Shown here piece by piece: positions 43,194 through 59,615 of a stretch of 64,000 nt of DNA (position 1 is its first letter; each line of letters opens with the position of its first letter). The notes under the pieces were generated by a model that saw nothing but the letters and a program-made list of their open reading frames with translations, made no database searches and was not told where the DNA came from. A program made the translations under genes and the position numbers. The DNA comes from Candidatus Brennerbacteria bacterium (GTDB lineage: Bacteria > Patescibacteriota > Minisyncoccia > UBA6257 > GWB1-50-10), in assembly GCA_016183535.1 (NCBI GenBank), contig JACPEK010000002.1, forward strand, positions 1,382 to 65,381, given 5' to 3'.

Positions 43194-43268
43194 ACGGATT
43201 AAACCGGTTATCTTAGTCGCCTTCCATACTATATAATGATAGCATTGCGGGGGATACCTTGTATTTTT

Positions 43269-43799
43269 ATGACATCATTCAAGAACAAACTCTTCGTGGA
43301 AATTGGCATTGGGGGAGGTATAGTGATTGCGCTTGGCATCGCGCTTGCCATGCTCGGCGGATCTATGAAAACCGCGAGCGGGCGCGTCGTAACGACTCGG
43401 ACGGAACTTCTCGAACGCTCTGCCTCGGTAGGATCTCTTGCGGCGCTCCGCGAGACATGGAAAACCAGAGCAGAGACGAGTTTGAACGTACTACGGAACG
43501 TGGTGCCGGAGAAAGATACGCTCATTAATGTTTCGCGTGATTTCCAGTCGCTCGCGTCGCAAACCCGCACCGAGTATTCATTCGGGTTCGTCGGGGAGAC
43601 GCCGGCGGGTGCGGCGGGCGATATCGGCGCGCTAAACTTTCGGCTTACGCTCCGCGGAGATCTCCCGAACATCTACTCGTTTATCGAGAAGTTTAGAGAA
43701 TTTCCGTATTTCTCCATGATTGACAGTTTTGTCATCGAGCGAAAAGGATCCGAAGCGCGAAGCGAACTCGTTGCGAATGGGAGGATATTCTACCGCTGA
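43269..43799 (+). CDS. PilO-like type IV pilus / competence pilus assembly protein
   Basis: N-terminal TM, a coiled coil, then a C-terminal ferredoxin-like region LRGDLPNIYSFIEKFREFPYFSMIDSFVIERKG...VANGRIFYR resembling PilO C-domains. It is divergent from dprA. Confidence 0.5.
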   Translation: MTSFKNKLFVEIGIGGGIVIALGIALAMLGGSMKTASGRVVTTRTELLERSASVGSLAALRETWKTRAETSLNVLRNVVPEKDTLINVSRDFQSLASQTRTEYSFGFVGETPAGAAGDIGALNFRLTLRGDLPNIYSFIEKFREFPYFSMIDSFVIERKGSEARSELVANGRIFYR

Positions 43800-43821
43800 C
43801 CATCAACTATTTTCATCTGCC

Positions 43822-44052
43822 ATGGATCGTCTCAAACGCGCCTTGGACGGCATTCAAAAAATAAAGCTGACGCGACGCACCCTCTTTTCCGCTTTGGGGA
43901 TGGTGATGGCGGTAGTAGTAGTGGGCGTTATCGTATGGCTCTCTACGTTTCTCGCAAACCAAATCAACGAGGCTTTGACCGCTGACCCGCATGCCGCTCC
44001 CTCGGTGCGGTTTGACATCGAAGGTTTTGAGAAGTTACAACTAACGAAGTAG
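43822..44052 (+). CDS. Hypothetical small membrane protein (possible pilus-assembly partner)
   Basis: 76 aa with a single TM helix VMAVVVVGVIVWL; it follows the pilO-like gene. Confidence 0.35.
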   Translation: MDRLKRALDGIQKIKLTRRTLFSALGMVMAVVVVGVIVWLSTFLANQINEALTADPHAAPSVRFDIEGFEKLQLTK

Positions 44053-44055
44053 CGG

Positions 44056-44130
44056 TGGTGGGTGTGGAAGGAATCGAACCTTCGACCTCTGTCTTATCAG
44101 GACAGCGTTCTACCACTGAACTACACACCC
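44056..44130 (-). tRNA. tRNA-Ile (anticodon GAT), CCA encoded
   Basis: The reverse complement folds as GGGTGTG...CACACCC-A-CCA with anticodon loop CTGATAA and T-loop TTCGATT. Confidence 0.75.
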
Positions 44131-44184
44131 GAACGGATTCTATCGTGCCATTGTCGTCGTATTTTTTCAAGCGAAATAGTTATC

Positions 44185-44414
44185 GGGCCGTTAGCTCAGC
44201 GGTAGAGCACTTCATTGGTCCCGATATTGTTCAAATTTTCAATTTGATTACAATATCGAGGATCCCGTATGACTTTGGTGGGCCTATAGCTTAATGGTAG
44301 AGCACCCGGTTTGCATCCGGGAGACGCGGGTTCGATTCCCACTAGGTCCACAGGTCCACCAAAGTTATCGGGACAATGAAAGGGTCGCCGGTTCAAATCC
44401 GGCACGGTCCACCA
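44185..44414 (+). tRNA. Interrupted tRNA-Thr (anticodon GGT): 5-prime exon 44185-44219, a 155-nt intervening sequence, and a 3-prime exon 44375-44414 with CCA
   Basis: Exon 1 GGGCCGT-TA-GCTC-AGCGGTA-GAGC-A-CTTCA-TTGGT joined to exon 2 AA-TGAAA-GGGTC-GCCGG-TTCAAAT-CCGGC-ACGGTCC-A-CCA gives a canonical 75-nt cloverleaf with G3:U70 and loop TTGGTAA. The exact junction is ambiguous by 1-2 nt. Confidence 0.5.
44280..44350 (+). tRNA. tRNA-Ala (anticodon TGC)-like sequence embedded in the intervening sequence (possibly a pseudo-tRNA)
   Basis: GGGCCTA/TAGGTCC acceptor with G3:U70; anticodon loop TTTGCAT. The T-stem GCGGG/CCCAC has one C-A mismatch. There is no CCA after the discriminator; it is followed by a duplicated GGTCCACCA. 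Confidence 0.45.
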
Positions 44415-44462: not shown

Positions 44463-44723
44463 ATGAATCGGTCTACCATCATCGCGATTGTAATAGCCCT
44501 TATTGCCGTTGCGGTAGGCGTCTATTACTTTACGGCCGATCTCGATACGACGCCGGAGGAGCGCGCGCTTACCGAAGCGGCGGATCTCCTCGCGGGAGAC
44601 GAGTCGAGCAACTTGTCGTCCGTGGTGGATACGAGCGTGAATCCGGTGGGGGAAACGCCCGACGTGAATCCGGTGGAGCGCGCGAATCCCTTTAGCGGCG
44701 TGAAGACTAATCCGTTCGAATAA
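44463..44723 (+). CDS. Hypothetical small secreted or membrane-anchored protein
   Basis: 86 aa with an N-terminal TM/signal anchor and an acidic, Pro-rich C-terminus. Confidence 0.4.
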   Translation: MNRSTIIAIVIALIAVAVGVYYFTADLDTTPEERALTEAADLLAGDESSNLSSVVDTSVNPVGETPDVNPVERANPFSGVKTNPFE

Positions 44724-44725
44724 AT

Positions 44726-46582
44726 ATGAAACGAGAACTTATCGCGAGCGCGTTGATACTCTTTGTCGGCATCGTGGTCGCGGGAGCGGTGGCGGTCGTG
44801 CCGGCACTCGCGCAAGAAGGGAATGTGGCGAAGATCGAGTTTCCCGTCGCGGAGCTTGGCAATTGCGGGAGCGAGCAGGCGTGCAAAACCTATTGCGACG
44901 ATCCTGCGCACATCAAAGCGTGTGTGAATTTCGCGGAGCAGAACGGTCTCATGTCGCGCGCGGAAGCCGCGACCGCGCGGAAGTTCGCGGAAGGCGCATT
45001 CAAAGGCCCCGGCGGATGCACGTCGCGAGAATCGTGCGAATCGTACTGCGACGACGTGAGTCGCATTAATGAATGTGTGGCGTTCGCTGAATCGCAGGGG
45101 TTTCTCCCTCCCGAAGAATTAGCGGAGGTAAAACAGGTGCAATCCGCCATTGCGCGGGGCGTGGTGCCGCCCGCGTGCGGGAACAAGCGCGCGTGTGAAA
45201 GTTACTGCCGCGCGCCCGCGCACATGCAGGAATGTATCGCGTTCGGCGAAGCGGCTGGCTTCATCAAGGGGCAGGAATTGGAAGATGCGAAGAAAGTTTT
45301 GGGCGCGATAGAGAAAGGCGTAACCCCGCCCCCGTGCGGCGGGAAAAAAGAGTGCGATACCTACTGCGGAGAGGAAGCGAATTTCCCGCAGTGTATCGCG
45401 TTCGCGGAGGCCGCGGGGTTCATGTCGAAGGAAGAAGTTGCAATAGCAAAGAAGACGGGCGGGAAAGGCCCTGGCGGGTGCCGCGGCGAAGAATGTAAAA
45501 CCTATTGCGACAATCCCGCGAATCAGGGAATATGCTTCGCCTTCGCGAAGGAACATGGCCTCTTGAAACAGGAGGATCTTCAAAGGATGGAGGAGGGGAA
45601 GGCAAAGTTTGCGGAAGGGCTCCGGCAGGCGCCGCCCGAGGTGGCGGAGTGCTTGAAATCAACGGTAGGCGAAGAAGTATTGAACAAGCTTGCCACGGAG
45701 GGCGGTATGCCCCCGCGGGACCTGGGCGAGAAAATGCGCGCGTGTTTCGAGAATTTCAGACCTCGCCCGTCCGAAGAGTTCCGCGAAGGTGGGCCCTCGC
45801 AGGGGAATTTTCAAGGGCCGCCCTCGTTCGGAGAAGGTTTTGGTGAATCGCAGGGCGCATTCAGCGGCCCGGGCGGATGCACGAGTCCGGAAGAGTGCCG
45901 TTCCTACTGCGAATCGAATCCGGAGGCGTGCGCTAACTTTGGCGGCGGGATGATAAGGGAAGGAAGAGAAATTCCGCGTCCCGGCGAAGTTCCTCATTTC
46001 GAAGACGGGTTTCAAAGGGGTCAGTTCCCTGCATGTTCATCGCCCGAAGAGTGCAAACAGCAGTTCGAGGGTCGGGGCGGTTTCCCGGGCGGAACATCGG
46101 AGGGAGCGTTTCCGGTTCCTCCCAACAACATGATGCCGCAGGAGTTTCAAAAACAGTTTGGTGATCAATACCGCGCGGAATTTGAAAAACAATATCAACA
46201 AGGAAATATGCTGCCTGCGGGTCTTTCTCCGCAATATCCGCAAGGAGCGATGCCGTCTGGTGTGATGATGCCGCAGTCGCCGATGCGGGAGTTTCAGGGC
46301 GCGCCGTATCCCGCGCCGGGCGCGTATCCGCAACCGACCGGCGGAACCTATCCCTCACCGAGCGCTTATCCTTCAGGTGCAGAAAGTTTCCAGCAGTATC
46401 AGCAGTATCAAGGAACGACCGGCGGCTATCCGCCTGCCCCGACCGGAGCGTCGGGACCGCCACCTTCTGGTGAATTTAACGCGCCGCCGCCCGAGTTTCA
46501 AAGCGCGCCGCCGCCGCCTCCTTCAAGCTTGGGTCCGCAGACGCTCCTCGGTCTCTTCCTCAACATCTTCCGCGGCGAGTAG
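44726..46582 (+). CDS. Secreted cysteine-rich repeat protein (at least 6 repeats of ~50 aa, C-x4-C-x3-C-x8-9-C) with a C-terminal Q/P/Y/G low-complexity tail
   Basis: Signal peptide ending ALAQEG. Repeat units include GxCxSxExCxxYCDxPxHxxxCxxFAExxGF. The last ~200 aa are proline/glutamine rich. Confidence 0.7.
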   Translation: MKRELIASALILFVGIVVAGAVAVVPALAQEGNVAKIEFPVAELGNCGSEQACKTYCDDPAHIKACVNFAEQNGLMSRAEAATARKFAEGAFKGPGGCTSRESCESYCDDVSRINECVAFAESQGFLPPEELAEVKQVQSAIARGVVPPACGNKRACESYCRAPAHMQECIAFGEAAGFIKGQELEDAKKVLGAIEKGVTPPPCGGKKECDTYCGEEANFPQCIAFAEAAGFMSKEEVAIAKKTGGKGPGGCRGEECKTYCDNPANQGICFAFAKEHGLLKQEDLQRMEEGKAKFAEGLRQAPPEVAECLKSTVGEEVLNKLATEGGMPPRDLGEKMRACFENFRPRPSEEFREGGPSQGNFQGPPSFGEGFGESQGAFSGPGGCTSPEECRSYCESNPEACANFGGGMIREGREIPRPGEVPHFEDGFQRGQFPACSSPEECKQQFEGRGGFPGGTSEGAFPVPPNNMMPQEFQKQFGDQYRAEFEKQYQQGNMLPAGLSPQYPQGAMPSGVMMPQSPMREFQGAPYPAPGAYPQPTGGTYPSPSAYPSGAESFQQYQQYQGTTGGYPPAPTGASGPPPSGEFNAPPPEFQSAPPPPPSSLGPQTLLGLFLNIFRGE

Positions 46583-46675
46583 AAAATTCCCGAAGAATAT
46601 CGTCGGGAATTTTCTATTATCATGATCCCGTCGAGGCTTGTCTCGAGCGAAGCCGAGGGATAGGATGGTTCCGCC

Positions 46676-47170
46676 ATGACAAGGAAAGGGGTAAAACTAT
46701 TGAACGTAAAACCGTTCCGGGAGACCTCGGGGTTCTGCGGACCCGCGTCGCTCAAAATGGTACTCGCGTATTACGGTGTGCGGAAGTCCGAGCGCGCGCT
46801 CGCACGCCTTGCGGGTGCCACGCGAAGTCAGGGCGTGGAAGCGCCGGGTCTCGTGAAAGCGGCGCGACGGCTGGGGTTTATCGCGCGCATCAAGGACCGC
46901 GCGACGCTCGCGGACATCAAAAAGTACATAAGGAAGTGCATCCCCGTTATCGTGGACTGGTTTTCTAATGACGACGGCCATTATTCGGTGGTGGTCGGCA
47001 TCACAAAGAGCACTATCTATCTCCAGGATCCGGAAATCGGGCGGGTGCGGGCAATGGACACGAAGACATTCAAGCGGGTGTGGTTTGATTTTCCCGGCGA
47101 CATCCTCCGCTCCAAAAACGCGGTGGTTCTTCAGCGTATGCTCGTGGTCCGCCGTTCGGGCAAAAATTAA
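46676..47170 (+). CDS. Standalone peptidase C39-like (papain-fold) domain protein
   Basis: Catalytic Cys context SGFCGPASLKMVLAYYG and His context DGHYSVVVG. 164 aa with no ABC-transporter domain. Confidence 0.65.
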   Translation: MTRKGVKLLNVKPFRETSGFCGPASLKMVLAYYGVRKSERALARLAGATRSQGVEAPGLVKAARRLGFIARIKDRATLADIKKYIRKCIPVIVDWFSNDDGHYSVVVGITKSTIYLQDPEIGRVRAMDTKTFKRVWFDFPGDILRSKNAVVLQRMLVVRRSGKN

Positions 47171-47195: not shown

Positions 47196-47909
47196 TTAAT
47201 GAAGCGCTTCCTTGATTTGTTCGCGGACTTCTTTGCTGGCACGCAGGACGGGATTTTTCGAGGCGACCGCTATGACTCTTCCTTTTGCGTCGAAAACGTA
47301 ATCGTCCAGATACACGCCATTGCACACCTGACATTGCGGTATCGTGTTCGAGAGGGCGAGAGGTTTATGCGGATCCATATGCCCCTGTTGGAGCGCTGTT
47401 GTTTTGCCGGGCTCAAGAAAATTTGGCTTGTGTTCTTGTGAGCCGCACGTGGCGCAACGGAACCCGTACACTACTTTAAGTTGTGCAAAATCTTTTGCGG
47501 CAATACGCCCCGCGCGTTTCAGCGATTTGAAGAGAAACGTAGGCTTCGGACTTTCGGTAGTGATGAGAATATGGTAGCCGCTCGGCACCACTTCTTTTTT
47601 GTTCTGATATTTGTCGCCTTTATTAAGCACATACCATCCGTCGCTCGCCAGATGACGAACTTGCTGGTCTTTGCCCGCTTTCGGATTTACGCTCGCTACA
47701 AATGACGAAATGGTGTCTTTGTGGACGAGCGCGCCCTTGTTCTTCCGCAGGAAAATGAGCCACAAGGCTTTTATACTGTTCCTCGCCGGGAACTTCACGC
47801 TGTACGGCGAGAGGTGGGTTTTGTGTTCTGCTTCGAGTTTTCGGTACCAACTTTCTATTTCATCGGGGGACATATACACATGCCCTCCTTGCTTATCCAG
47901 TTTTTTCAT
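47196..47909 (-). CDS. HNH (His-Me finger) endonuclease, putative Type II restriction enzyme
   Basis: CATCGS...QQGHMDPHKP...NTIPQCQVCN (CxxC - H-x-DPH - N - CxxC). It overlaps the upstream methyltransferase gene by 17 nt in an AT-rich island. Confidence 0.6.
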   Translation of the reverse strand: MKKLDKQGGHVYMSPDEIESWYRKLEAEHKTHLSPYSVKFPARNSIKALWLIFLRKNKGALVHKDTISSFVASVNPKAGKDQQVRHLASDGWYVLNKGDKYQNKKEVVPSGYHILITTESPKPTFLFKSLKRAGRIAAKDFAQLKVVYGFRCATCGSQEHKPNFLEPGKTTALQQGHMDPHKPLALSNTIPQCQVCNGVYLDDYVFDAKGRVIAVASKNPVLRASKEVREQIKEALH

Positions 47910-49431
47910 AGTTTTTTAAACGCTTCTCCGCAATGGCGAAGTATTTTTTCTCTATTTCAAAACCGATGAATTTCCTATTTTTTCTCAAGGCGGCGACTCC
48001 TGTAGTGCCGCTTCCCATGAAGGGGTCGAAAACCGTTTGTTTCGGGGAGGTGAATATCTCAATCAGCCGCTCCATAAGGTCTATCGGTTTTATAGTCATG
48101 TGGTCAATGAGTTTTCTTGAGTTCGGTTTTTTATAGTTCAGCACGGTCGTTTGTTGCGATTCGGGAAAATCCGTTTGGATAAGTCCCGTGCGCCATGTGA
48201 GCCAGTTTTCGACGAATGTCCCTTCTTTCGGCTTGTGCGCGAGCAGAATCGCCTCGAATTTCGGTCGTAGTTGAGGGGTTTTTCTGTTTTCAAGGCTCTT
48301 GATAATCTGCTCTTTTTCGTGCGCGGGGATCTTCATCTTTTTCACGAAGTGGTTTTGAGTGAACGCTTTTCCTTGCCCGCCGTTATGCTCCCATATCAGC
48401 ATATCCCGTATTTCAAAACCGGCGTTTTCGGCCGCGAGCGCGAGACGGTGGAAGAGTCTTCCCTGCGAAAATGAGATCATAAATCCTCCGGGCTTGAGCA
48501 CTCGTAACGCTTCGTGGAAAACTTTGGTGAAAAATTTTTCGAGCTTTTTTCCTTGTTCAGGATCGAATTTCATGCCTACCGGGAGGCCTTGTATCGCTCC
48601 GGCCCTTGCCGATTTTTGTTTCAGTTTGGCATCCGACCACTCGTTGTCCATCCCATCAAGAAAATAAGGGGGATCGGTGGCGATAAAATCTACGCTGTTC
48701 GTGTCAATACTTTTGAATGCGTCCAAGCAGTCAGCGAGATAAATTGAGACGTTACGCCAAGTTTTTTTATCAACGATCTTTTTCCCGCTCGTTTTCTCGG
48801 CGACGCGTTCCGGTGTTATTGCGGGCGCGGATTTTTTGTTTCGGATAACGTCGACAAAAACACCTTGGATTGCAAAGTCCTTTTTTCCCCACTTGACGAT
48901 GATCGGCTCGAAGTTTTTGTTCGCGGGCTGAAGGCGAATTTGGTTCCTCTCCTTGTAGTAAGTTTTCAAAGTAGTGTCATAGTTATCGATGAGCGCGACC
49001 ACCTTCTGCCCGTTCTCCGCGACCGATTGATGGCGAACCAATATGATGTCGCTGTCATTGATATTTTCTTCGACCATACTCTCGCCTTGCACGCGCAACG
49101 CGTACACGTTGCCCGCATTCGGAATCCGGTTCGCGGGGACGGCGATCGTTTCGGTGGGTGTATCGAAGAGCGTGAGCGGTTGTCCGGCAACGATGGTGCC
49201 GAGTAGGGGAATTTGAACCATGGAGGTTGCTTCAAATATCTGCACCCCTCTTCGTTGGTTTTTGTTCAGCTGAAGGTATCCCGCGTCCTCCAAATTTTGG
49301 AGATGTTCATGCACAGTGCCGACCGCTCGCTTGAGGCCGGCGGCTATCTCGGGGATGGAAGGGGAGTATCCGCGCCTCCGCGCGTATTTAGTAACAAAGT
49401 CGAGCACCTCTTTTTTCTTATCGGTGAGCAT
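47893..49431 (-). CDS. Fusion protein: full-length LexA-like repressor (wHTH plus S24 autopeptidase) joined to a beta-class N6A/N4C DNA methyltransferase
   Basis: aa 1-205 form a LexA domain (MLTDKKKEVLDFV...PSIPEIAAGL; IPLLGTIVAGQP; GESM Ser and KTYY Lys). From aa ~225 onward it is an MTase (SVDFIATDPPYF motif IV, FDPFMGSGTT motif I). It is a single 512-codon ORF with no internal stop. Confidence 0.65.
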   Translation of the reverse strand: MLTDKKKEVLDFVTKYARRRGYSPSIPEIAAGLKRAVGTVHEHLQNLEDAGYLQLNKNQRRGVQIFEATSMVQIPLLGTIVAGQPLTLFDTPTETIAVPANRIPNAGNVYALRVQGESMVEENINDSDIILVRHQSVAENGQKVVALIDNYDTTLKTYYKERNQIRLQPANKNFEPIIVKWGKKDFAIQGVFVDVIRNKKSAPAITPERVAEKTSGKKIVDKKTWRNVSIYLADCLDAFKSIDTNSVDFIATDPPYFLDGMDNEWSDAKLKQKSARAGAIQGLPVGMKFDPEQGKKLEKFFTKVFHEALRVLKPGGFMISFSQGRLFHRLALAAENAGFEIRDMLIWEHNGGQGKAFTQNHFVKKMKIPAHEKEQIIKSLENRKTPQLRPKFEAILLAHKPKEGTFVENWLTWRTGLIQTDFPESQQTTVLNYKKPNSRKLIDHMTIKPIDLMERLIEIFTSPKQTVFDPFMGSGTTGVAALRKNRKFIGFEIEKKYFAIAEKRLKNYEKTG

Positions 49432-55190: not shown

Positions 55191-58100
55191 ATGCGTAGGG
55201 CCACCGTATCACTCATTGTACTTGCGGTTACGATAGGAATTGTTTTTCCTGCTCGGGCACTCGCGTACGATCAAGAAACTACTCACGCCGCACTCACGGA
55301 TGAGGCGGTGGATTTCTACAACCTTCTCTATCCGGACGAACCACTCACCGCCGAGCAAAAAGAATGGATTGTAGAGGGAAGCATCAACGAGGATGAATTT
55401 CCGCGGTGGCTGAACCACTTCTATGACCCGATAAGGAAAATTGGATGGAATGGTGAACATCAAGGGATCGCGAGCGCCGGGGCAACGCGCGCGGTAGCGT
55501 ATGCAACATTAGTGCCGATCGGCGGCGCAGTTCTCCCCACGACAGCGTGGGTGCACGATCACGCCATGCAAGCCGGCCCCTACGCGAATATGGGAGGCGA
55601 CCGCACGTGGGAGCAGGCGCTTAAATACTACGTGGATGGAAACAAGGAAGAAGCATACCGGACGCTCGGCCACGCCCTCCATCTTCTTCAAGACATGACG
55701 GTACCCGACCACAGCCGGAATGATTCGCATGCGCCGCTTGCCGGTGACGACGGATCGCCTCTTGAGGATTATCTGGAAAAATGGAATCGCGGGAATATCG
55801 GGGAGTTGGATTTGGTCGGTAATCTTACTGCACAAAATACGCGGCCGCCCTCGTTCAATAAAATCGAGGACTATTTTACAAACACGGCAGAGTACAGCAA
55901 TAAACATTTCTTCTCAAAGGACACTATAATTAGTGATGTATACACTTTTCCAGAAATAGTCAAGGATAATGGAAATTTTGGATATGGAATTGATGAGAAC
56001 GGAAATGAATTTCCACTTGCGGGTGTTGATTTTATAACCGATGAAAGTAAAAAAGTTTCGAAAATATTTTTAATTGGGAACAAAAAAGAGTACTACCCCA
56101 TCCTCAACGCATATTTCTCCCGCCTCGCGCCAAAAGCAGTGCTTTATGGCGCAGGTGTCATCGAACTGTTTGAAAAGCAGGCGCGCGACGCGCTTGAGTT
56201 CAAGGATATCGCTCCCCATGCTACGCGTTTGGATTTATCGCGCGTAACTTCACTCTTCTCATTTTCGCTTGGCGCATTGGGAAAAAATATTGTAACCGGT
56301 GTTGCTTCTTTACCCTCTTTGATTGGTCGAGTATTTTCTACCGCGGTGGGTGGCGTAAAAAACGCCGCGAGCGATGTGGCGGCGTTCACGCAGAATATTA
56401 TCTCGAAGATTCAGAATAATCCTAAGCGTGCCGCGGAGATCGCGACGGAAAGCGCGGAGCAAATAGAAAATCTCCTCGCGGGGGATCCGACGGACGGCGT
56501 CGTGATCGACACCGAGGAAGAACGGGCACAACTCAAGGAGCTCCAGAATCAACTCGACGATATCGCGGATCAAGTAGACGACTTCACGTATCAAGTGGAT
56601 AAGGCGGCGGGGAACGAGGGAAGGGGAGGAGCGCAGGAAACCGCTGGTGGCGCTGACGAAACGGAGGACGCGCAGAAGAAGACTGGTAGTGTGGACAAAA
56701 GCGTTGATACGAAAGAGAAAACGAATAACACGGGAAGTAAGAAAAATATTTCAAGTGGGGGAGGCGGTGGTGTGGCGGCGAGTGCACCGAATCTCGCGAT
56801 TACCGAGATTATGTATAACGCGTCCGGCACCGACGACGGGCGCGAATGGATTGAAGTGAGGAATGATGGGGCCTCCTCCGCAAGTTTTGATGACGTGCGG
56901 TTTCTTGAGGGTGGCACAAATCATCGGCTCGTGTTTGCGCGTGGCGCCGCGGCGCTCGCGGCGGGCGCCTATGCGATTATCACCGATGATGCTGATCGGT
57001 TTATCATTGATTATCCATCATTCGCGGGGAGTCTCTTCGATAGTTCGTTCTCCCTCTCGAACGACGGCGAGACGCTCGCGCTCACGTTCAATGGCAGTAC
57101 CTTTCATTCGGTTTCATACAGCTCGAGCACGGGCGCGCATGGCGACGGGAACTCTCTCCAATTGATCGGGGCGGCATGGCAAGCGGCGACACCGACGCCG
57201 GGTGTGGTGAATGTCGCGGGGTCATCCGGCGGCGGATCTTCAGGTGAGGGTTCTTTAAGCGCCACTTCGACCGCAACCTCCTCGCCGCCCACGTCAGGGT
57301 TCGGCGCCTCCCACGTGGTGATAAGTGAGGTACAGGTGGCGGGCGCGGATGCGGGCGACGAGTTTATCGAACTTTACAATCCGACGGATCAGGCGGTGGA
57401 TATGTCAGGCTGGTCGCTCCAGTACGCGGGCGGCAACACCGTCGTTACGTCTTCCACAGTAAGCAAGAAGAATTTTCTCGCGACGAGTTCCATTGTGGCG
57501 AAAAGCTTTTACCTTGTGGGGCGCGGACTCGACGAAGCAGGCGGAGACGGCTATCGCGGGAGCGTCGTATCTGATATGGCCCACCGCACGTTTTCGCTTT
57601 CGGGCGCCTCGGCGGGTGCCAAGCTTTTCCTTGTGCCAAGCTCTACATTAATAGAAAGCGAAACCGATCCGATTATTCTCGACACGCTCGATTACACCTC
57701 GACCACCGTGGTGGACGCGGGTCAAAGTTTCGAGCGGCGCGCGTGGAGCAATAATCTTTGCCACTCGGCGATCGCGGGCGGCACGGGAGAATTTCTAGGG
57801 AACGGGTGCGATACTGGTACCTTTGCGGAAGACTTTGAGATACGGGCGGCGGCGAATCCACAAAACAGCGGGAGCTTCAAAGAACCACGCACGGCGCCCT
57901 CGGTGCTCCAGGCCCCGACGGGGACTACGGCACTCGCCGTCTATAACCGCAATGCGATCGCCATCAACTTTGCATGGCAAGCCTCAAGTGATTTCGAGGG
58001 TGCAACCTCCACCGTTACCTACCGCGTTACGAATGCGTCAACCTCCGCGATTATTTTCAATACGACCTCAACATCGTTTTCGAAACAAATAACCGAGGTG

Positions 58101-59615
58101 GGACGCTCATATTCATATATCTTCCAAGCATTTGATCGCGACGGCATGGGATCCGCGACAAGCTCCGTTACGGTGGAAGCGCCGAGTTTTTTGAGCGCGC
58201 TCTATCTCTATCCCGATCCGTTTGCTACGAGCAGTCGTTATGTGATTGACCTCTACTATGATTCATATCCATTCATCCCGCATCGCTGGAGTTCGGGCGG
58301 CGCGTGGCGCCTGCCGCTGTTCTACTTGAACCGCGTTGCGCCGGGGAGTACGAGCACACACGTCTATGATCCTGAACCGATTTCCGCGGCGCTTGCCAAC
58401 GGCATCGTCGCGATGAAATTTCGCGACTGCGGTGGTCAACCGGACGAGGTGAATGTACGGGTGCGCCTGCCCGACACCGCCGCGCAGTGTGTATCCTCCG
58501 GCGCGGGCGTGGACGACATAGCCTTCTCACTATTGGAGGATCCCCACCTGCGGCTCACGCTCGCCTCGTCAAGCGACGCGCTTCCGCTTTCAACATCTGA
58601 TTATCTCACCGTCGCCTTCTATGATTATTCGACGCCCACCTTGGTATACGGTGGCGGCCGCGCGTTCTCGCTCGTCGCGACCGACACGAATCAATACCAT
58701 TTCAGTGTTTCCGCCCCCGCCTTCATCGCTCCGCACATTCCCGATTCGTTCACCGTAGAATTTGACGCCACAAGCTCGCGCCTCATCGCGCGATGGGCGA
58801 CCTCGACCGACGTAGACACTTTGGATAACCTTCTCACCTACGAAGTTGCATTTTCGACGAGTACCTCTCCCGCGGAGTCTGACTGGCAGTCTGCAGGGTC
58901 CCAGCCGCACGCGGATGTGGATGACCAGACGTTTATCTCCCATCGCTACCTGCGGCACGTGGCGCCGGGCGACGCATTCACCATAGGCGTGCGCGCGAAG
59001 GACGAATTTGGCGTAACCTCGACGCCGCGCACCGCGGCGTGGCAATATCAGGCCGCCACGGAGGTGTTTTTACAGGCAACGAGCACCGGGTGGAGTAACG
59101 TGTGGGGTCAAAAGGATTCGGGGCACCCGCAATATCCTGCTCGGGCATCCCTCCAAAGCATTGTTCCTGCGAGCGCGCTTATATTCGATGTTGCGACGAT
59201 ACGGGCGTGGGAAGAGGTAATAGGAAGAAGCGTGCTGACCACGCTCCGGCTCGGTGTGTTCGTGGATGACGGCGCGAACCGACCGCTCCTCACAAACAAA
59301 CTTGGCGAGGCCACGGTCGATCAACTTGGAAATTTCGCAACCTCCACCGATCTCGCGTTTGTGTTTACCTCTCCTATAACGCTTGCCACAAGTACAAAAT
59401 ATTGGTTTGCACTCGACGTGGGGAGCGTGAGCGACAACGCGGCATATTTTGAAAATCAGTGGCGGAACGCGATCGCGACCGGCGACCCCTATTCCGCGGG
59501 GCAGGCAGGGAGAGGCGCGGTGGAGGAATGCGCCAACAACGACTATTGCGGCACGAGTATTCCCTCGCCCTCGGCCGACGCGGATTGGTATCTGAAACTG
59601 TATTTGCGGCAGTAG
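55191..59615 (+). CDS. Giant secreted surface protein: zinc-dependent phospholipase C / P1-nuclease-like N-domain, two lamin-tail domains (LTD), and a ~900-aa beta-rich C-terminal region
   Basis: Signal peptide ARALA|YDQ. PLC/S1-P1 fold motifs NHFYDP and GHALHLLQDMTVPDH. LTD1 LAITEIMYNASGTDDGREWIEVRN, LTD2 VVISEVQVAGADAGDEFIELYNPTDQAVDMSGWSL. 1474 aa. Confidence 0.7.
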   Translation: MRRATVSLIVLAVTIGIVFPARALAYDQETTHAALTDEAVDFYNLLYPDEPLTAEQKEWIVEGSINEDEFPRWLNHFYDPIRKIGWNGEHQGIASAGATRAVAYATLVPIGGAVLPTTAWVHDHAMQAGPYANMGGDRTWEQALKYYVDGNKEEAYRTLGHALHLLQDMTVPDHSRNDSHAPLAGDDGSPLEDYLEKWNRGNIGELDLVGNLTAQNTRPPSFNKIEDYFTNTAEYSNKHFFSKDTIISDVYTFPEIVKDNGNFGYGIDENGNEFPLAGVDFITDESKKVSKIFLIGNKKEYYPILNAYFSRLAPKAVLYGAGVIELFEKQARDALEFKDIAPHATRLDLSRVTSLFSFSLGALGKNIVTGVASLPSLIGRVFSTAVGGVKNAASDVAAFTQNIISKIQNNPKRAAEIATESAEQIENLLAGDPTDGVVIDTEEERAQLKELQNQLDDIADQVDDFTYQVDKAAGNEGRGGAQETAGGADETEDAQKKTGSVDKSVDTKEKTNNTGSKKNISSGGGGGVAASAPNLAITEIMYNASGTDDGREWIEVRNDGASSASFDDVRFLEGGTNHRLVFARGAAALAAGAYAIITDDADRFIIDYPSFAGSLFDSSFSLSNDGETLALTFNGSTFHSVSYSSSTGAHGDGNSLQLIGAAWQAATPTPGVVNVAGSSGGGSSGEGSLSATSTATSSPPTSGFGASHVVISEVQVAGADAGDEFIELYNPTDQAVDMSGWSLQYAGGNTVVTSSTVSKKNFLATSSIVAKSFYLVGRGLDEAGGDGYRGSVVSDMAHRTFSLSGASAGAKLFLVPSSTLIESETDPIILDTLDYTSTTVVDAGQSFERRAWSNNLCHSAIAGGTGEFLGNGCDTGTFAEDFEIRAAANPQNSGSFKEPRTAPSVLQAPTGTTALAVYNRNAIAINFAWQASSDFEGATSTVTYRVTNASTSAIIFNTTSTSFSKQITEVGRSYSYIFQAFDRDGMGSATSSVTVEAPSFLSALYLYPDPFATSSRYVIDLYYDSYPFIPHRWSSGGAWRLPLFYLNRVAPGSTSTHVYDPEPISAALANGIVAMKFRDCGGQPDEVNVRVRLPDTAAQCVSSGAGVDDIAFSLLEDPHLRLTLASSSDALPLSTSDYLTVAFYDYSTPTLVYGGGRAFSLVATDTNQYHFSVSAPAFIAPHIPDSFTVEFDATSSRLIARWATSTDVDTLDNLLTYEVAFSTSTSPAESDWQSAGSQPHADVDDQTFISHRYLRHVAPGDAFTIGVRAKDEFGVTSTPRTAAWQYQAATEVFLQATSTGWSNVWGQKDSGHPQYPARASLQSIVPASALIFDVATIRAWEEVIGRSVLTTLRLGVFVDDGANRPLLTNKLGEATVDQLGNFATSTDLAFVFTSPITLATSTKYWFALDVGSVSDNAAYFENQWRNAIATGDPYSAGQAGRGAVEECANNDYCGTSIPSPSADADWYLKLYLRQ

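Follow-up and report, generated by a model that had tools for sequence, protein, structure and literature searches.

The cysteine-rich proteins HcpA, HcpB and HcpC of Helicobacter (Sel1-like) are secreted proteins in which tandem short alpha-helical units, stapled by disulfide-type Cys pairs, form an elongated solenoid, and solenoids of this type often bind extended peptides. Gram-positive surface proteins of the LPXTG type consist of a signal peptide, folded repeats, a Pro-rich C-terminal spacer and a terminal hydrophobic stretch that is often basic-ended. In the plant AtDEF-like family (PF25052), a signal peptide is followed by the spacing C-x5-C-x3-C-x8/9-C in a cysteine-stabilised alpha-beta fold, and ComA, PCAT1 and LahT carry C39 peptidase domains. 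Here we report on a locus that resembles each of these systems in part. It lies in a 64,000-nucleotide (nt) stretch of contig JACPEK010000002.1 from a Candidatus Brennerbacteria bacterium (the whole stretch is referred to here as the window) and comprises a gene for a 618-amino-acid (aa) Cys-rich repeat protein, a gene directly upstream for an 86-aa membrane protein with a conserved NPF tail, and a gene downstream for a standalone C39 peptidase of 164 aa. A sequence-only reading of the window had described the repeat protein and the peptidase, and both open reading frames (ORFs) are present exactly as it gave them; it had also suggested that the two form a functional pair. We find that the repeat protein has its true, conserved partner in the NPF-tail protein, which that reading overlooked, and that the C39 peptidase is a chance neighbour.

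The repeat protein shares with the Helicobacter proteins its predicted export, its tandem short helical units and its disulfide-type Cys pairs, but it shows no sequence or fold match to them. We therefore regard them as the nearest functional analogue, a likeness of analogy and not of membership. As in the LPXTG-type proteins, folded repeats lie between a signal peptide and a Pro-rich spacer with a hydrophobic terminal stretch; in contrast to them, the repeat protein has no LPXTG or sortase motif, its terminal stretch spans about 10 to 14 residues, and we propose that it is anchored through a separate small protein. The plant AtDEF-like family matches it in having a signal peptide followed by the same Cys spacing, and 2 of 20 homologues reach the Pfam threshold for PF25052, over the signal peptide and unit 1. 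However, the domain occurs six to nine times in bacterial proteins of 500 to 750 aa, the window protein itself is unmatched, and its predicted fold is all-alpha. We therefore rejected membership in PF25052, the resemblance being one of Cys spacing only. The C39 protein, finally, matches the family of the ComA, PCAT1 and LahT domains (PF03412), with a Cys/His/Asp triad that aligns with those of ComA and PCAT1, but it stands alone, with no ABC (ATP-binding cassette) transporter within the 64-kb window.

An operon of a repeat protein and an NPF-tail protein

Positions 44463-46582 of the window form a conserved two-gene operon encoding the small NPF-tail protein and the repeat protein (Table 1). 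The comparison covered the repeat-gene loci of 80 further species, a total of 1.23 Mb with up to 10 kb on each side of the gene. Clustering of all ORFs placed a ~90-aa protein at the position immediately preceding the repeat gene in 62 of 74 loci, with 4 more present as antisense miscalls, and after a motif search of the remaining loci the NPF-tail gene was found in 79 of the 80, the 80th having just 100 nt of upstream sequence. The NPF-tail gene thus lies directly upstream of the repeat gene in every testable locus (79/79), and across the 80 loci no other neighbour was conserved by ORF clustering from position -5 to position +5. It also precedes the repeat gene in L081, L083, L087 and L090. 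The pairing extends to a divergent 1,129-aa family member that bears a Laminin_G_3 domain. The distance between the two genes is 2 nt in the window and mostly -8 to +10 nt across loci, and these short gaps and overlaps suggest co-translation from one mRNA.

Downstream, the operon ends in a hairpin that is probably an intrinsic terminator. A simple consensus scan for promoters and terminators did not detect it, and it was revealed by RNA folding: its predicted free energy is -22.2 kcal/mol (z -5.5), none of 200 shuffled sequences folded equally well, and a U-rich stretch follows it on the 3' side. At the equivalent position in L081, L083 and L087 we found canonical terminators with a GC stem and a T run, whose sequences differ from one another. 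We take these data to show an obligate two-gene operon, probably closed by this terminator.

In the 86-aa protein, residues ~5-24 form an N-terminal transmembrane anchor, after which come an acidic linker and the tail VNP..PDVNP...ANPF...KTNPFE. Its ~90-aa relatives share a basic N-terminus, a single hydrophobic helix and an acidic linker that varies. Their tail is conserved, the consensus being GVLPSI..NPLEN.PD.NP..K.NPFK.IKTNPF, and in all 67 aligned members NPF, followed by zero to three residues, forms the C-terminal end. The protein has no Pfam, NCBIfam or PADLOC match, and all homologues are annotated "hypothetical." In the window copy, the flanking charges favour an orientation with the N-terminus inside and the C-terminus outside. 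A natural fusion of the small protein to the repeat protein was considered and rejected, as the N-terminal extensions of long family members consist of a different domain of ~100 aa. That domain, with the motif GLFTLT..DP.GI.SF.L, marks a subfamily of 700 to 1,130 aa (P0369, P0390, P0352, P0318, P0340, P0373, P0377 and P0392), some of whose members also carry a C-terminal Laminin_G_3 or Kazal_2 domain.

Architecture, spread and predicted fold of the repeat protein

The N-terminus of the repeat protein resembles a signal peptide, with a hydrophobic core at residues ~5-25 (Kyte-Doolittle 15-aa maximum of 3.0) followed by an AxA-Q site at Ala29-Gln30. Position 29 is Ala without exception in 20 homologues, most of which have Gln next, a pattern that fits a signal-peptidase I site. 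Hydropathy and this conserved site thus support the signal peptide that had been predicted for the 618-aa protein, and the repeat protein is very probably exported.

The first Cys of each four-Cys (Cys4) unit falls at residues 47, 98, 151, 204, 252 and 385, and a two-Cys remnant (C-x5-C) occupies residues 437-443. Although the sequence-only reading was right about the repeats and their four-Cys pattern, its count of at least six ~50-aa repeats resolves into five full units of ~52 aa, one truncated unit and the two-Cys remnant. The spacing it gave (C-x4-C-x3-C-x8-9-C) did not hold either: the commonest is C-x5-C-x3-C-x8-C, found in four units, with C-x4-C-x3-C-x8-C and C-x5-C-x3-C-x6-C in one unit each. 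Pairwise local BLOSUM62 scores ranged from 71 to 141 among the five full units and from 45 to 84 when the truncated sixth unit was involved, compared with 24 ± 4.6 (maximum, 42) for shuffled sequences; the repeats are well above chance. Most relatives have six units, and the five of the Brenner/Jorgensenbacteria clade reflect the loss of ancestral unit 4. Of possible cleavage motifs between repeats, the homologue alignment contained no conserved dibasic or other site; GPGG directly preceding a Cys (GPGG-C) was nearly invariant, at units 2, 5 and 6.

Beyond the units, the composition of residues 445-600 (21% P, 14% G, 13% Q and 6% Y) confirmed the low-complexity tail noted earlier. The tails of 60 homologues, out of 120 scanned, end in a conserved motif with the consensus S-S-L-G-P-x-x-L-L-G-x-x-L-x-I-F, after which come a few variable residues; these often finish in R or K and are RGE in the window copy. 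The C-terminus of the window protein (...SSLGPQTLLGLFLNIFRGE) contains no LPXTG, and its hydropathy lies under the transmembrane level. With a Kyte-Doolittle 15-aa maximum of 1.2 and a hydrophobic stretch of ~10 to 14 residues, the motif is too short and too weakly hydrophobic for a transmembrane helix.

Table 1. Features of the repeat-protein locus, in window coordinates
Feature	Positions	Strand	Details
Small membrane protein gene	44463..44723	+	86 aa; ends 2 nt 5' of repeat gene
Repeat protein gene	44726..46582	+	618 aa; HYU81_00905 of the Candidatus Brennerbacteria metagenome-assembled genome (MAG); from ORF list
Predicted Sec signal peptide	44726..44815	+	Residues 1-30; cleavage between ALA and QE; hydropathy and homologue alignment
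Array of five ~52-aa Cys4 units, predicted three-helix	44837..45565	+	Residues ~38-280
Conserved non-repeat helical domain	45566..45760	+	Residues ~281-345; invariant Cys 309 and 340; alignment, and helices at model positions 252-313 (protein residues ~282-343)
Truncated sixth unit, GPGGC-x5-C-x3-C-x6-C	45860..45940	+	Residues ~379-405, inside low-complexity segment
P/G/Q/Y-rich low-complexity segment	46058..46525	+	Residues 445-600; length and sequence vary among species
Conserved C-terminal motif, PPPxSSLGPQxLLGLFLNIF	46526..46579	+	From tails of homologues; short, hydrophobic/amphipathic
Hairpin, probable intrinsic terminator closing the two-gene operon	46578..46618	+	Overlaps stop codon of repeat gene; followed by UUUUCUAUUAU
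C39 peptidase gene	46676..47170	+	164 aa, standalone; neighbour, outside the two-gene module

The sequence of the window protein is found unchanged in a Candidatus Brennerbacteria MAG, as a hypothetical protein. There are over 1,800 homologues of 470 to 750 aa, every one annotated "hypothetical," in the Jorgensen-, Wolfe-, Yanofsky-, Nealson-, Kaiser-, Lipton-, Magasanik- and Azambacteria and other lineages; a scan of one genome per species with two peptide patterns only matched 328 species. In a profile search of 1.84 billion cluster representatives, we retrieved 1,961 members (50% identity clusters), 1,162 of them at an E value of ≤1e-30, which indicates a family that is large yet sharply bounded, with no tail of distant relatives in other architectures. 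The family architecture is fixed: a signal peptide, N-terminal units, a two-Cys helical domain, a variable Pro/Gly/Gln-rich spacer that in homologues carries one to three truncated units, and the terminal motif. The window protein has the family's unit order, the two-Cys domain, the Pro-rich spacer and the LLGxxLxxF terminal motif. Some longer members carry Laminin_G_3 (lectin-type; E values of 1e-25 to 1e-27) or Kazal_2 domains, which supports an extracellular character of the family.

Each unit of the window protein is most similar to the unit of the same ordinal position in other species, indicating that the units are old, non-interchangeable modules. Residues 31-345 are 79% identical to the orthologue in L081, a Jorgensenbacteria contig, and the same comparison gave identities of 79% for TopA, 78% for methionine aminopeptidase (MAP), 69% for DprA and 58% for adenylate kinase (ADK). 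The folded part of the protein evolves as slowly as housekeeping enzymes such as TopA.

Searches for known relatives of the repeat were negative for the window protein. The window protein matched no Pfam family at an E value of ≤1, had no meaningful NCBIfam match and no PADLOC match, and gave no significant profile match to Sel1/TPR, EGF, anaphylatoxin or defensin-like families; a 20-sequence profile found no match among PDB sequences. AlphaFold2, given an alignment of 120 sequences, predicted an all-helical structure for 415 aa (mean pLDDT of 84.6, with units mostly above 90), and a two-unit model likewise consisted entirely of helices (pLDDT of 90.1). In the predicted unit, the first Cys lies in a loop before helix 1, the second and third (CxxxC) lie in helix 1 and the fourth lies in helix 2, after which comes a longer linker helix; the units are confidently predicted to have three helices each and to stack into a long array that is helical throughout. 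A Foldseek search of the model against the whole PDB returned nothing below an E value of 1.6. The sequence-only reading, which could not place the repeat in a known family, is thus borne out at the level of Pfam, NCBIfam, PDB sequences and PDB folds, and the repeat is neither EGF-like nor anaphylatoxin-like. In our literature searches we found neither the family nor its fold nor its operon partner described; the sequences themselves were already public as hypothetical proteins.

A candidate envelope module and the alternatives to it

We propose that the two-gene operon encodes an extracytoplasmic envelope module specific to Parcubacteria, in which a disulfide-stapled helical rod is tethered by the NPF-tail anchor, while the C39 gene on its 3' side is unrelated and separately transcribed. 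The function is one that we infer, and we give this reading as a whole a probability of roughly 0.55. In the mechanism we envisage, Sec-dependent export and removal of the signal peptide would be followed by the formation of two disulfides per unit, producing a rigid rod. The Asn-Pro-rich tail of the small membrane protein would dock on the helical array and tether it to the membrane, a step modelled by analogy on the binding of peptides by TPR, ARM and Sel1 solenoids, and the Pro-rich spacer would cross the wall zone. With a rod, a tether and a wall-crossing spacer, the module would be a structural or presenting envelope scaffold rather than an enzyme, a toxin or a protease substrate. Pairing of the four Cys within a unit into two disulfides is suggested by the even number of Cys in 103 of 120 homologues, by the two invariant Cys of the central domain, by a signal of the Sec rather than the twin-arginine translocation (Tat) type and by the disulfide machinery of candidate phyla radiation (CPR) bacteria, in which DsbA-like proteins and VKOR are reported to be widespread (Meheust et al., bioRxiv 10.1101/335083).

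Several points weigh against this proposal. The four Cys of a unit could equally bind metal, and sequence conservation this strong is unusual for surface proteins, so that an enzymatic or machinery role could be considered. The C-terminal motif is too short for a membrane anchor. In addition, the outside position predicted for the C-terminus of the NPF-tail protein derives from the positive-inside rule, which gives no clear answer for some homologues.

The alternative that survives best, although we consider it unlikely, is that an episymbiont uses the repeat protein as a host-contact adhesin, with the helical array as a stalk for binding ligands or presenting them to the host surface. CPR bacteria are thought to be host dependent, and a repetitive extracellular protein with a Pro-rich spacer has a compatible architecture, as do the longer members with their lectin-type Laminin_G_3 and Kazal domains. 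However, fast divergence and variable copy number are usual for proteins of this kind, whereas here the order of the units is kept and the protein evolves like TopA; the adhesin reading fits poorly because of this housekeeping-like conservation. Nor did ORF clustering of the loci reveal any linked pilus or secretion genes.

It is less probable still that the Cys4 units are Zn sites, or iron-sulfur (Fe-S) sites like the C-x6-C-x2-C-x5-C loop of endonuclease III, in an extracellular array for metal binding or electron transfer. Each unit does hold four invariant Cys within a compact span, the organisms come from anoxic groundwater, and the spacing appears comparable to that of some helical Fe-S loops. 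Cofactor-loaded proteins are normally exported via Tat, however, and the repeat protein has a Sec-type signal with no twin-arginine motif. The disulfide machinery reported to be widespread in CPR bacteria (10.1101/335083) also speaks against metal sites. Furthermore, the units lack His or Asp co-ligands as well as CxxC knuckles, and the two invariant Cys of the central domain and the two of the remnant unit point to pairs rather than tetrads.

A polyprotein precursor cut into defensin-like antimicrobial peptides of ~50 aa is very improbable: the Cys4 spacing resembles that of C2 to C5 in plant defensins and two homologues reach the PF25052 threshold over the signal peptide and unit 1, but the window protein has no such match, the all-helical model has no beta-sheet and hence no cysteine-stabilised alpha-beta fold, the units are position-specific orthologues rather than interchangeable copies with no conserved dibasic or other cleavage sites between them, and no immunity or export genes are linked.

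Returning to the envelope module, a more specific and tentative version of it is that the operon encodes an undescribed, Parcubacteria-wide envelope complex, in which a new alpha-solenoid, stapled by disulfides, captures a membrane-anchored peptide with an invariant NP..NPF..TNPF tail and which might serve as a wall or surface-layer organiser or as a host-contact scaffold. If this is true, a core structural role of the complex in ultra-small cells would explain its housekeeping-like retention. Parcubacteria make up a large share of bacterial diversity; we know of no pure culture of the lineages concerned, and to our knowledge next to nothing has been described of their envelope and host interface in molecular terms. 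The repeat family is one of many CPR-specific unknown families, yet it is unusually conserved and its predicted structure unusually confident. A family that is restricted to Parcubacteria, conserved like a housekeeping gene, predicted to be exported, built on a domain with no Pfam or PDB relative and encoded in an operon with an NPF-tail protein offers a concrete, testable handle on envelope architecture.

The C39 gene and the rest of the window

The 164-aa ORF matches Pfam Peptidase_C39 (PF03412) with an E value of 1.3e-17 and 64.3 bits (cut-off, 22), and its NCBIfam matches are partial, domain-level matches to PCAT models only. Cys21, His102 and Asp118 align with Cys17, His96 and Asp112 of ComA, the PCAT1 domain aligns as well, and the triad residues are invariant in 22 homologues. 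The oxyanion-hole Gln is absent: the window copy reads KPFRETSGFC (Arg15/Glu16), compared with PFQET.. or PFRQT.. in relatives. The Pfam match, the triad and the lack of an ABC module in the ORF agree with its earlier description as a standalone C39 peptidase. The protein has no signal peptide and no transmembrane segment, and the family starts directly at the catalytic domain, with no hydrophobic segment, which points to a cytoplasmic location. This standalone family of ~155 aa (2,351 matches, 65% mean column identity and an invariant WFDF motif) is found in CPR bacteria and DPANN archaea, including a Woesearchaeota archaeon, in variable gene contexts with no evident substrate.

The C39 peptidase had been suggested to be a dedicated processing protease of the repeat protein, which it might cut between the repeats or after GPGG, before the first Cys. 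The two genes are adjacent on the same strand with 93 nt between them, the catalytic triad is intact, GPGG-C is nearly invariant in units 2, 5 and 6, and a C39 gene lies zero to two genes downstream of the repeat gene in the three close relatives L081, L083 and L087. These features are outweighed by the genomic evidence. A tblastn search with the C39 protein found no match at an E value of ≤1e-3 in the 80 loci from other species (best chance match, E value of 0.79); among 76 of these loci, 72 include at least one downstream gene and 58 include five. Conserved linkage of the two genes within flanks of up to 10 kb is thereby excluded, and the co-occurrence expected in relatives is not seen within these flanks.

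Adjacency is confined to the Brenner/Jorgensenbacteria clade, and even there other genes intervene in 2 of 4 genomes: in L083 an opposite-strand gene and in L087 a regulator-like gene of 351 aa separate the C39 gene from the repeat gene. In L081, C39 directly follows the repeat gene and a second copy lies 4 kb farther on. The closest C39 homologue (in L088) is not adjacent to a repeat gene, and more distant homologues occur in unrelated gene contexts. A terminator separates the two genes in four genomes, and a predicted cytoplasmic peptidase, with neither a signal peptide nor a transmembrane segment, would be on the wrong side of the membrane from an exported substrate. The GPGG motifs, moreover, have none of the amphipathic leader context of double-glycine substrates. 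Finally, the repeat gene is followed by a variable island with genes of defence and mobile types, which in L081, L083 and L087 includes AbiEii, Fic, GIY-YIG, RadC, MazG-like, SLFN-type helicase and restriction-modification (R-M) genes and in the window holds a 237-aa ORF and a LexA-methylase gene. We consider a processing role to be highly improbable. The pairing is a local accident of synteny beside this island, and the C39 gene should not be annotated as a processing protease.

Several observations concern the C39 genes in their own right. The two copies in L081 (9461-14144) are 85% and 84% identical to the window copy and are interspersed with and surrounded by AbiEii, adh_short, RadC, MazG-like and SLFN-type helicase genes, an arrangement that suggests duplication or movement of the C39 gene within the variable island. 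In L088 (4276-7561), with L089, a C39 gene of 87% identity stands beside a divergently oriented gene for a 592-aa ABC exporter (ABC_membrane plus ABC_tran, with no peptidase domain), a type III R-M system and two small ORFs (109 and 104 aa). This C39 and the exporter could be a split peptidase/exporter system. We looked for a split bacteriocin system around the window C39 gene and recognised none: tblastn of the L088 exporter against the 64-kb window gave no match, and inspection by eye of the small ORFs around C39 in the window and in L088, including the two upstream of the L088 C39 gene, recognised no double-glycine precursor. The neighbours of C39 in the window are an R-M pair and HAD, CMAS and TspO genes.

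On the minus strand, the stretch 47196-49431 holds a gene for a 512-aa fusion of a LexA DNA-binding domain, an S24 self-cleaving peptidase and an N6/N4 DNA methyltransferase. It overlaps by 17 nt the Cys-rich 237-aa ORF, which has no family match. Together they are probably a type II R-M pair whose methylase carries an SOS-type repressor module, and the pair also occurs in L087 (78% and 68% identity). Between positions 48000 and 56000, where HAD hydrolase, cyclopropane-fatty-acid-synthase-type methyltransferase and TspO/MBR genes are located, GC content falls from ~0.56 to 0.47-0.50, and this stretch is possibly acquired DNA. Positions 55191-59615 encode a 1,474-aa protein with two lamin-tail domains, followed by a PIF1 helicase.

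Just on the 5' side of the operon, positions 44056-44351 hold two tRNA genes in a back-to-back arrangement, tRNA-Ile(GAT) on the minus and tRNA-Ala(TGC) on the plus strand. They lie outside any rRNA operon, whereas most bacteria have this pair in the rRNA spacer. Between dprA and the tRNA genes (43236-44052) are two overlapping ORFs of 187 and 110 aa. Both contain a hydrophobic segment, neither has a family match, and L081 carries them in synteny, with 70% and 58% identity.

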